From: a virus
Taxonomy: Duplodnaviria; Heunggongvirae; Uroviricota; Caudoviricetes
DNA length: 64,000 nt
IMG/VR virus record: IMGVR_UViG_2850773344_000009
Direction: 5' to 3' (one strand)
The translations under genes and the position numbers were made by a program. Position 1 is the stretch's first letter; every line of letters begins with the position of its first letter. Under the pieces are notes generated by a model. It saw only the letters and a program-made list of their open reading frames with translations, searched no databases and was not told the DNA's origin. Positions 41,415-43,647 of this stretch are shown here, one piece after another.

Positions 41415-42250
41415 TGAGGTAGCCTGAGTTTAACGGACACTCCTTCCTGAAATAGAATGGCATCAGAAGGAGCTAATAATGAGCAGAAAAACCCAACGTT
41501 ACTCTAAAGAGTTCAAAGCCGAAGCTGTCAGAACGGTTCTTGAAAATCAACTTTCAATCAGTGAAGGCGCTTCCCGATTATCCCTTCCTGAAGGCACTTT
41601 AGGACAATGGGTTACCGCCGCCAGAAAAGGGCTCGGTACTCCTGGTTCCCGCACGGTGGCTGAACTGGAATCTGAAATTCTGCAACTGCGTAAGGCGTTA
41701 AATGAAGCTCGCCTTGAGCGAGATATATTAAAAAAAGCAACAGCGTATTTTGCACAGGAGTCGCTGAAAAATACGCGTTAATCGAACAATGGCGACAACA
41801 ATTTCCCATTGAAGCGATGTGTCAGGTATTTGGTGTATCCAGGAGCGGTTATTACAACTGGGTACAGCATGAACCCTCAGACAGAAAACAAAGTGATGAG
41901 CGGCTAAAACTGGAGGTTAAGGTGGCACATATCCGCACTCGCGAAACATATGGAACCCGGCGGCTCCAGACGGAGCTGGCAGAGAATGGCATCATCGTTG
42001 GTCGTGACCGACTGGCACGTCTTCGTAAGGAGCTGAGGCTACGCTGTAAGCAGAAACGCAAGTTCAGAGCGACTACGAACCCGAACCACAATCTGCCAGT
42101 TGCGCCAAATCTGCTGAACCAGACGTTCGCTCCTACAGCACCAAATCAGGTCTGGGTGGCGGACCTGACGTATGTTGCCACACAGGAGGGATGGTTGTAC
42201 CTCGCTGGCATCAAAGATGTTTATACGTGCGAAATTGTCGGCTACGCCAT
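41415..42250 (+). mobile_element. IS600 second copy, 5' ~836 bp only
   Basis: Identical to reverse complement of 1..800; orfB reading frame ends prematurely at the breakpoint. Confidence 0.9.
41479..41781 (+). CDS. IS600 OrfA
   Basis: Identical 100-aa ORF to 434..736. Confidence 0.9.
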   Translation: MSRKTQRYSKEFKAEAVRTVLENQLSISEGASRLSLPEGTLGQWVTAARKGLGTPGSRTVAELESEILQLRKALNEARLERDILKKATAYFAQESLKNTR

Positions 42251-42254
42251 GTAA
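41817..42254 (+). pseudogene. IS600 OrfB truncated (145 codons) at junction with IS629
   Basis: Frame ends ...GYAM then stop from junction sequence. Confidence 0.8.
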
Positions 42255-42299
42255 CGTTGAACCGCCCCGGGTTTCCTGGAGAGTGTTTTATCTGTGAAC

Positions 42300-43186
42300 T
42301 CAGGCTGCCAGATCATCGTTTCCGATGGAAGCATAATAAGCTTTTTCTGCTTCTGCCGGAGGAGTATGGCCCAGCCTTTCCAGCAATCGTCGATTGTTAT
42401 ACCAGTCCACCCACGTGAGTGTGGCCAGTTCCACTTCTGCACGGTTTTTCCAGCTCTTACGGTGTATTACCTCCGCTTTGTAAAGACCATTGATGCTCTC
42501 CGCCATCGCGTTGTCATACGAGTCGCCTGTACTTCCTGTTGATGCCAGTAATCCGGCTTCCTTAAGCCGCTGTGTGTAGGCCAGCGATACATACTGAGAA
42601 CCTTTATCACTGTGATGGACCGTGCCGGACGGTCGACGGGCCCATAACGCCTGCTCCAGTGCATCCAGCACGAATGTCGTTTCCATGGACGATGAGACCC
42701 GCCACCCCACGATGCATCCGGCAAACACATCAATGATGAACGCCACATAGACGAAGCCCTGCCATGTGCTGACGTAAGTAAAATCAGCCACCCACAGCTG
42801 GTCAGGTCGTTCTGCCACGAACTGACGGTTTACGCGGTCGCCTGCGGCAACGGCTTTCCGGCTGATGGTCGTACGGACCTTTTTACCCCGGAGAACACCG
42901 GCAAGTCCCATAACCGCCATGAGACGTGCCACAGTGCATCTGGCCACTCTGATACCTTCCCGTAACAACTGACGCCAGACTTTACACCGTATACCTTGTG
43001 ATTTTCATCGTATACGCGCTGTATCTCTTTCTTCAGCCAGTCATCGCGCTGCGCACGGGCACTGCGTTTATCCGGATGATGTCGCTGTTGCTGACAGTGG
43101 TAATACGTTGACGGGGCAATATGCAGTTCGCTGCATAGCGGTCCGACCCCGTACTGCTCACGCAGCTTATCCAGCAGTGGCATCAT
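42300..43186 (-). pseudogene. IS629-like OrfB, frameshifted near 42970 (two overlapping ORFs)
   Basis: ORFs 42830..43186 and 42300..42968 together span one ~295-codon transposase in two frames. Confidence 0.7.
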
Positions 43187-43509
43187 TTTTTCCAGAGGCG
43201 GTCGAACTCCGCCTTCGCAAAATAAGCGGAAGCCTGGCGAAGGATATCGTTACTGCGGCGCAGTTCACGATTTTCACGTTCCGGCTCTTTCAGACGCTGA
43301 CGTTCAGCGGTGGTGAGCCCTCCATCACCGCCCCCGGTATCCCGCTCATGCTGGCGAACCCAGACACGCAGAGTCTCCGGCGTACAGCCAATCTTTGGGG
43401 CAATGGAACAAATTGTCGCCCATTGTGAGTCATATTCGCCCTGACTTTCCAGAACCATACGGACTGCCCGTTGACGGACTTCGGGGGAAAAACGAGTATT
43501 TTTAGTCAT
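43183..43509 (-). CDS. IS629-like OrfA
   Basis: 108-aa [44 protein letters not shown]... Confidence 0.85.
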
Positions 43510-43563
43510 CCTGTTTACCTCTTTCTCAGGAAGTTTAGTCTCCAGGATTCCCGGGGCGGTTCA

Positions 43564-43647
43564 CGTTGGGTTTTTCTGCTCATTATTAGCTCCTTCTGAT
43601 GCCATTCTATTTCAGGAAGGAGTGTCCGTTAAACTCAGGCTACCTCA
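43564..43647 (-). mobile_element. IS600 fragment: left terminal 84 bp in minus orientation
   Basis: Matches 717..800; terminus at 43647 abuts the gp16-like gene. Confidence 0.85.

Follow-up and report, generated by a model that had tools for sequence, protein, structure and literature searches.

The DNA described here lies at positions 41415–43647 of a 64,000-nucleotide stretch (IMG/VR record IMGVR_UViG_2850773344_000009), referred to below as the window, and consists of two remnants of the insertion sequence (IS) IS600 in opposite orientations, one of which contains an inserted IS629. On the evidence of its sequence, the window can be assigned to the thrW/SHI-O serotype-conversion region of Shigella flexneri 5a M90T. 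The pile-up is bordered by remnants of two prophage genes, a large terminase gene (terL) on the left and a P22-type gp16 gene on the right. Its anatomy was established by direct reading, self-BLAST of the window and alignment to reference elements, namely the full IS600 and the IS629 annotated by the Prokaryotic Genome Annotation Pipeline in Escherichia coli 2013C-4830.

The first IS600 remnant, copy A (nucleotides 1–837 of the element, plus strand, 41415–42251), retains the left inverted repeat, an intact orfA of 100 codons and a truncated orfB, in which 145 of 272 codons are left and the stop codon TAA arises from the joint with the neighbouring copy. It is identical to the reference IS600 at 830 of 837 positions, with seven mismatches. 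Copy B is on the minus strand and is present in two pieces. The sequence GTAACGT (42251–42257) represents nt 88–82 and matches the reverse complement of reference nt 82–88 at 7 of 7 positions; the piece at 43564–43647 represents nt 84–1, including the left terminus, matches the reference at 84 of 84 positions and was also recovered by self-BLAST. The chance of a match of the whole 6–7 nt piece is about 1/4096 to 1/16384, and that of the extra TAA(+G) beyond the expected 3 bp duplication is about 1/64 to 1/256. The surviving part of copy B is nt 1–88, joined to nt 837 of copy A; this joint is designated A837::B88 below. The G at 42251 can be assigned to either copy and represents 1 nt of microhomology. 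In the original prediction, copy A ended in the middle of orfB at 42250; the element, its start and its truncation are as described there, while the end is at 42251, at the shared G.

Between the two pieces of copy B, a 1306 bp IS629 (minus strand, 42258–43563) is located. The terminal repeat TGAACCGCCCCGGG was found at both of its ends, orfA occupies 43183–43509, and orfB is split by a 4 bp ACGC deletion in the region of 42976–42980. The element is 98.9% identical to a 1310 bp E. coli copy over 1312 aligned columns, and plasmid annotations name the matching element IS629. This member of the IS3 family is also called IS1203-like in E. coli O157. The window copy shares with the IS629 family both terminal repeats, the orfA/orfB layout and the 3 bp target duplication; it differs in the broken orfB, which is intact in the copy at the same site in S. 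flexneri 8401 (Sf8401). The direct repeat CGT surrounds the element (42255–42257 and 43564–43566), and the IS600 sequence continues on either side. Since removal of one CGT makes IS600 contiguous across IS629, this is a simple insertion of IS629 at nt 82–84 of the inverted copy B. The 7 nt piece, the CGT repeat, the 84 bp left end and the insertion of IS629 into a minus-oriented IS600 had all been proposed earlier, and both the alignment and self-BLAST agree with them.

Each of the two IS600 copies keeps its left terminus only, and neither is a complete element. They resemble IS600, an IS3-family element of Shigella and E. coli, at about 99% nucleotide identity: copy A has kept its left inverted repeat with orfA and the beginning of orfB, and copy B its left terminus. 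Compared with the full 1264 bp element, copy A has lost nt 838–1264, including the right inverted repeat and the part encoding the C-terminus of OrfB. Neither copy A nor copy B can transpose, and the pile-up is an immobile scar, with the exception of IS629 in genomes where its orfB is intact; nothing in the sequence hints at a function. A further pile-up is found in E. coli 2013C-4830 (NZ_CP027325, positions 2700–2860), where CTC separates a full IS600 from an inverted 37 bp fragment of the IS600 right end, after which comes IS629. This IS600/IS600/IS629 arrangement is tail-to-tail and demonstrates that two IS600 copies can come to lie convergently with hardly any spacer between them.

On the left side, copy A abuts the 3′ remnant of an SfV-like, HK97-type large terminase gene (minus strand, 40995–41414), in which the last 139 of 577 codons are present. 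From 30000 onwards the window follows an intact SfV-like prophage of E. coli collinearly at 98.4% identity, and the collinearity ends exactly at 41414. The break falls between GTAGCGATA and ATCCACC, and the intact E. coli homologue continues beyond it. No small terminase gene adjoins the remnant.

On the right side, the left terminus of copy B abuts a truncated gene of a P22-type gp16 ejection protein (minus strand, 43635–45365, 576 codons) with the Pfam domains SLT and Phage_P22_gp16. About 573 of about 910 native codons are left; the IS600 terminus supplies the last three codons and the stop codon. The same gp16 allele in another S. flexneri lineage is uninterrupted at the corresponding site, between GAAAAGAGAGT and CTTTCGGG, and extends for 338 more codons. 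The adjacent late operon has the P22 order gp7–gp20–gp16, with Pfam matches to Inj_translocase, P22_gp7 and the P22 portal and coat proteins. The block resembles a P22-like prophage in both its gp16 domain and its gene order, but full-length gp16 is not kept. The unbroken states of both target sites are known, that of terL from E. coli prophages and SfV, and that of gp16 from other S. flexneri lineages with identical gp20.

To assess the conservation of the structure, the whole pile-up was aligned between the window, Sf8401 (CP000266), CP026799 and a 102 kb JGI contig. The joints are identical in all aligned sequences, while several single-nucleotide polymorphisms (SNPs) and the 4 bp ACGC indel in IS629 differ between them. 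M90T and CP026799 have the deletion in orfB, whereas Sf8401 and the JGI contig lack it; the indel is a simple marker that splits serotype 5 strains into two groups. An IMG/VR provirus carries the same joint. CM001474.1 (S. flexneri 5a M90T) is the sole record that matches the junction-specific 145 aa OrfB remnant exactly, and the gp16 fusion protein is recorded in 29 blocks of assemblies, six of them with contigs longer than 1 Mb. Among 5,426 E. coli genomes and 72,556 plasmids, the joints were not found as contiguous sequences and only two-piece matches were obtained, which indicates that they are lineage-specific. An apparent 89% match on plasmid p93_0495-1 proved to be a different arrangement. 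The JGI contig, More10kbN_1001754 from sample 3300001148, is 99.95% identical to the window across several IS copies; although deposited as a metagenome contig, it is in effect a fragment of S. flexneri serotype 5, nearest to Sf8401.

The left edge of the window is occupied by a third IS600, copy L (minus strand, 1–800), with its left terminus at 800. Nucleotides 800–1 of the element lie in the window, while the element has its full length in the genome; self-BLAST gave 99.6% identity between this copy and 41414–42214. The extension of copy L in Sf8401 and the JGI contig contains full orfA and orfB, and its right end abuts a 370 bp 3′ fragment of an integrase gene (int), followed by a complete thrW, proA and proB. 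The flanks of copy L are AAA and GGG, without a target duplication, and the copy is therefore a recombinant rather than a simple insertion. Its left end abuts a lambdoid late-control and lysis block (minus strand, 801–4486) with KilA-N, Rz, lysozyme, holin and Q genes, which was identified from open reading frames (ORFs), Pfam matches of the same genes elsewhere and partial matches to the lysis genes of the SfV-like E. coli prophage. Thus, as originally proposed, the terL and gp16 remnants each abut an IS600 left terminus, and a third such terminus at 800 bounds the lysis block.

The lysozyme gene of this block (2410–2887) is apparently frameshifted and is read as two ORFs. Another lysis cassette is located on the plus strand in the right-hand part of the window (60622–62209); its Rz gene is split (61742–62209), and the cassette ends at an IS2 that begins at 62761. 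The truncated Rz was matched only on short contigs. The lambdoid early region holds an IS4 transposase gene and an IS1 copy (10138–11484 and 14763–15535), with IS4 lying between the cro/cI-like genes and cII; these are further inactivating IS hits on the prophage.

A complete ORF for a thrW-type integrase is located at 21230–22390 on the plus strand. Over its last 419 bp, this gene has the same sequence as the int next to thrW in other S. flexneri lineages, and it differs at 5 of 419 positions (98.8% identity) from the int fragment beside thrW in serotype 5. It is followed by a 46 bp attachment (att) core (minus strand, 22405–22450) identical to the 3′ end of the tRNA-Thr gene thrW. The core lies between int and gtrA in an attP-like position; its orientation is opposite to that of the chromosomal thrW, which lies at a distance of about 23 kb. 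The attP-like site (22391–22651), together with the second int 3′ fragment beside thrW, points to tandem prophages at thrW and a subsequent inversion.

The serotype-conversion genes gtrA–gtrB–gtrV (plus strand, 22652–25184) begin the SfV-like block that runs to 41414. Phage SfV (NC_003444) is 97.6% identical to the window over 22387–37252 (14.9 kb), which includes gtrA/B/V and the tail and head genes. The block does not amount to a complete SfV-type genome: only 139 codons of terL are left, and int shares no more than about 70% identity with its SfV counterpart.

At its far end, the P22-like block is bounded by an IS911 (minus strand, 56307–57555), recognised from Pfam hits, translations and terminal repeats, which truncates the P22-like large terminase gene. 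Its flanks are GGC and GCG, without a target duplication. On its other side (57556–59867) are the remnant of a Rha-like gene, a DUF6971 gene and a third gene, for about 373 aa; elsewhere in Shigella and E. coli, these genes belong to an integrase-bearing island beside recJ–prfB–lysS. Their presence here hints that IS911 mediated a rearrangement over a long distance.

In other S. flexneri lineages, identical gp20 was found in 347 blocks. These lineages keep gp14–gp7–gp20–gp16–mnt–tailspike–gtr by thrW in the opposite orientation relative to proA. Two loci from lineages without the SfV-like phage (L018 and L022) illustrate another course of decay. In them (4503–5751 and 8333–11068 in the coordinates of those loci), IS911 joins the thrW-adjacent int directly to the end of a P22-like tail-needle gene. 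Their gp16 is a pseudogene broken near codon 237, an independent decay of the same ancestral P22-like prophage.

Taken as a whole, the region comprises at least two prophages arrayed at thrW, of which one is SfV-like and another P22-like. According to the Sf8401 genome paper (Nie et al. 2006, PMC1550401), SHI-O retains about 15 kb of SfV, and inversions and rearrangements around it are ascribed to IS elements; the parts of the paper considered here make no mention of an IS600 joint with a nested IS629, of an adjoining P22-like remnant or of an att core in inverted orientation. The window shares with the published SfV remnant the locus, the genome family, gtrA/B/V and some 15 kb of SfV-like genes for tail and head, whereas its int and early region are unlike those of SfV.

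The position of the A837::B88 joint restricts how it could have formed. The joined positions are 749 nt apart in the element and the copies are inverted, so homologous recombination cannot explain it. The joint lies inside both IS600 copies and 6–7 nt outside the end of IS629, whose direct duplication is kept, so it is not a product of transposition either. Judged by these features, A837::B88 is an illegitimate join at internal, non-homologous positions with 1 nt of microhomology. The earlier proposal that IS600-mediated inversion or deletion assembled the region is supported by the outer junctions, the inverted att core and the inverted P22-like block, but it does not extend to the joint itself, which is internal and non-homologous.

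Since junctions between an IS end and its flank outlast homologous recombination, those at the KilA site, the terL 3′ part and the gp16 5′ part record three independent IS600 insertions. We consider it probable, with moderate confidence, that a deletion between two convergent IS600 copies made the joint. In this scheme, copy A would have inserted into the large terminase gene of the SfV-like, gtrV-carrying prophage, and copy B independently into gp16 of the P22-like prophage. IS-mediated inversions would then have turned the two copies towards each other by their right ends, while each left end stayed at its original target. Everything from nt 838 of A through nt 89 of B could next have been lost in a non-homologous deletion that used 1 nt of microhomology, together with the 5′ part of terL, the 3′ part of gp16 and anything in between. 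The insertion of IS629 with the CGT duplication at nt 82–84 of copy B would be a separate simple event. Both the order of these events and a deletion rather than an inversion as the last step are what we infer from the preserved pieces.

Signatures of inversion can be noted across the region: the att core has the opposite orientation to thrW, the P22-like block is flipped with respect to proA when compared with other S. flexneri lineages, and both IS600 copy L and IS911 are without target duplications. Both late blocks are inverted relative to the canonical orientation and yet their order is kept, which implies more than one rearrangement. Two models were worked through on paper only: a Campbell-type integration of a phage circle via IS600, and a tandem-prophage model with one IS600-by-IS600 inversion. 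In the latter, a thrW–[SfV-like]–[P22-like] tandem array and a single homologous IS600 inversion would explain the three outer junctions, around 800 and 41414, as well as the orientation of the att core; this model would need one IS600 in the proximal int and another downstream of the distal KilA gene.

If the joint had arisen by inversion, reciprocal junctions would be expected elsewhere in the genome, and a search for them had been suggested in the original prediction. The predicted products were an IS600 right end followed by ATA and ATCCACCTCCGC (terL 5′ part), an IS600 right end followed by AGT and CTTTCGGGCAG (gp16 3′ part), and a fusion of the reverse complement of IS600 838-… with IS600 89-…. 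No reciprocal junction was found in the protein and IMG/VR searches, which were incomplete. Protein searches for the missing gp16 C-terminus and terL N-terminus revealed no fragment with the predicted length or an IS600 end; the candidates P0067 and P0056 run beyond the break and are unrelated truncations. In IMG/VR, none of the three predicted joints was detected, though the observed joint is present there, and among 20 IMG/VR contigs with gp16 3′ sequence, none (0/20) came from the genome with the joint. The absence of reciprocal products leans towards deletion, although these negatives are weak.

Several points weigh against the deletion between convergent copies. Both of its ends would lie inside IS600, an unlikely coincidence unless inverted copies stimulate deletion, which is assumed here. 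No strain in an intermediate state was found. Scans of the metagenome_contigs and genome_contigs sets for two of the reciprocal junctions were blank, but the observed joint, used as a positive control, was also absent from them, which makes these scans uninformative. The reciprocal searches are incomplete in that IMG/VR contains predicted proviruses only and protein clusters hide fragments; their negative results are weak, as the DNA scans covered no complete serotype 5 chromosome.

The order of the two events at copy B is close to evenly balanced. There is nearly an even chance that the fusion came first, leaving an 88 bp stub of copy B, and that IS629 inserted later, 4 nt from the joint. The 3 bp duplication and the presence of IS600 on both sides of IS629 are compatible with either order. 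With IS629 first, the deletion end, which could have fallen anywhere in the roughly 1180 nt of copy B, would have to lie no more than 4 nt from the element, a coincidence of about 0.3% unless the end was targeted; with the fusion first, an insertion within 4 nt of the joint in an 88 nt stub is a coincidence of about 5%. However, pairing of the inverted copies, in which IS629 ends the homology at nt 85, could explain the end at nt 88, and this favours IS629 first. Every examined assembly has both features, so that no discriminating intermediate is available. Hence, of the earlier claim that IS629 had entered copy B before the fusion, the simple insertion holds, while the order is not demonstrated and the reverse order fits the sequence equally well.

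An unlikely alternative to the deletion is a reciprocal non-homologous inversion: two IS600 copies in direct orientation would have been broken at 837/838 and 88/89, and the observed joint would be one of the two products. The other side, the reverse complement of IS600 838–1264 fused to IS600 89–1264, would then lie elsewhere in the genome, followed by the gp16 3′ part, the tailspike gene and the gtr cluster. Such a single event would cover both the head-to-head joint and the flip of the P22-like block compared with other lineages. Moreover, Sf8401 belongs to serotype 5b, which implies a gtrX cluster somewhere in the genome, and this cluster could sit on the displaced piece. Against this, the reciprocal fusion is missing from IMG/VR, which holds the observed joint, and the protein searches gave no gp16 C-terminal fragment beginning at the break. 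Illegitimate inversions are also rarer than deletions, and the flip has an ordinary homologous route open to it through the IS911, without a target duplication, at the other end of the P22-like block.

A more specific form of the deletion, in which a convergent IS600 pair snapped back on itself and IS629 at nt 84 ended the homology and so set the deletion end at nt 88, is doubtful. Its closest known counterpart is the nearly precise excision of Tn10, a deletion stimulated by inverted repeats, which uses short direct repeats in the arms and leaves symmetric stubs. In both cases, the centre between two inverted IS copies is lost and the outer stubs stay, without transposase; here, by contrast, the stubs are of 837 and 88 nt and only 1 nt is shared.

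Formation of the joint by a transposase, through intramolecular transposition of IS629 or IS600 with an adjacent deletion or inversion, is very improbable. IS3-family elements do yield adjacent deletions and inversions, and the junctions of IS600 copy L and IS911 in this region are also without target duplications. Such joints sit exactly at the IS end, however, whereas A837::B88 is 6–7 nt off the end of IS629 and internal in both IS600 copies, and the direct 3 bp duplication kept by IS629 would not be left by an intramolecular inversion or deletion. A transposase origin is contradicted by the sequence itself. Finally, an assembly collapse of repeated IS copies, which the original prediction named as its possible refutation and for which only the general difficulty of assembling IS-rich Shigella genomes speaks, is excluded for practical purposes, because the joints are the same in five sequences from different projects and technologies that differ by internal SNPs and the indel, and short-read assemblies break at the IS600 edge (L007), as they should at a real repeat.

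The components of the region all belong to well-known families (IS600, IS629, IS911, and SfV-like and P22-like prophages), the locus has been published, and nothing here is new in kind. IS-scrambled prophage remnants are the rule in Shigella, and the scar is real but ordinary. The analysis offers a base-resolution view of how the SHI-O of serotype 5 was built from at least two thrW prophages and scrambled by IS600, IS629 and IS911. The junctions of the terL remnant with IS600, of IS600 nt 837 with nt 88, and of IS600 with the gp16 remnant could mark the serotype 5 (M90T/8401) lineage. If the snap-back of a convergent pair were true, the joint would be a natural record of inverted-repeat instability, in which a pair of IS copies in an IS-saturated genome drove a chromosomal and asymmetric counterpart of the nearly precise excision of Tn10. 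More generally, the joint calls for caution in the reading of such genomes, in that joints between IS copies do not always come from transposase or homologous recombination.

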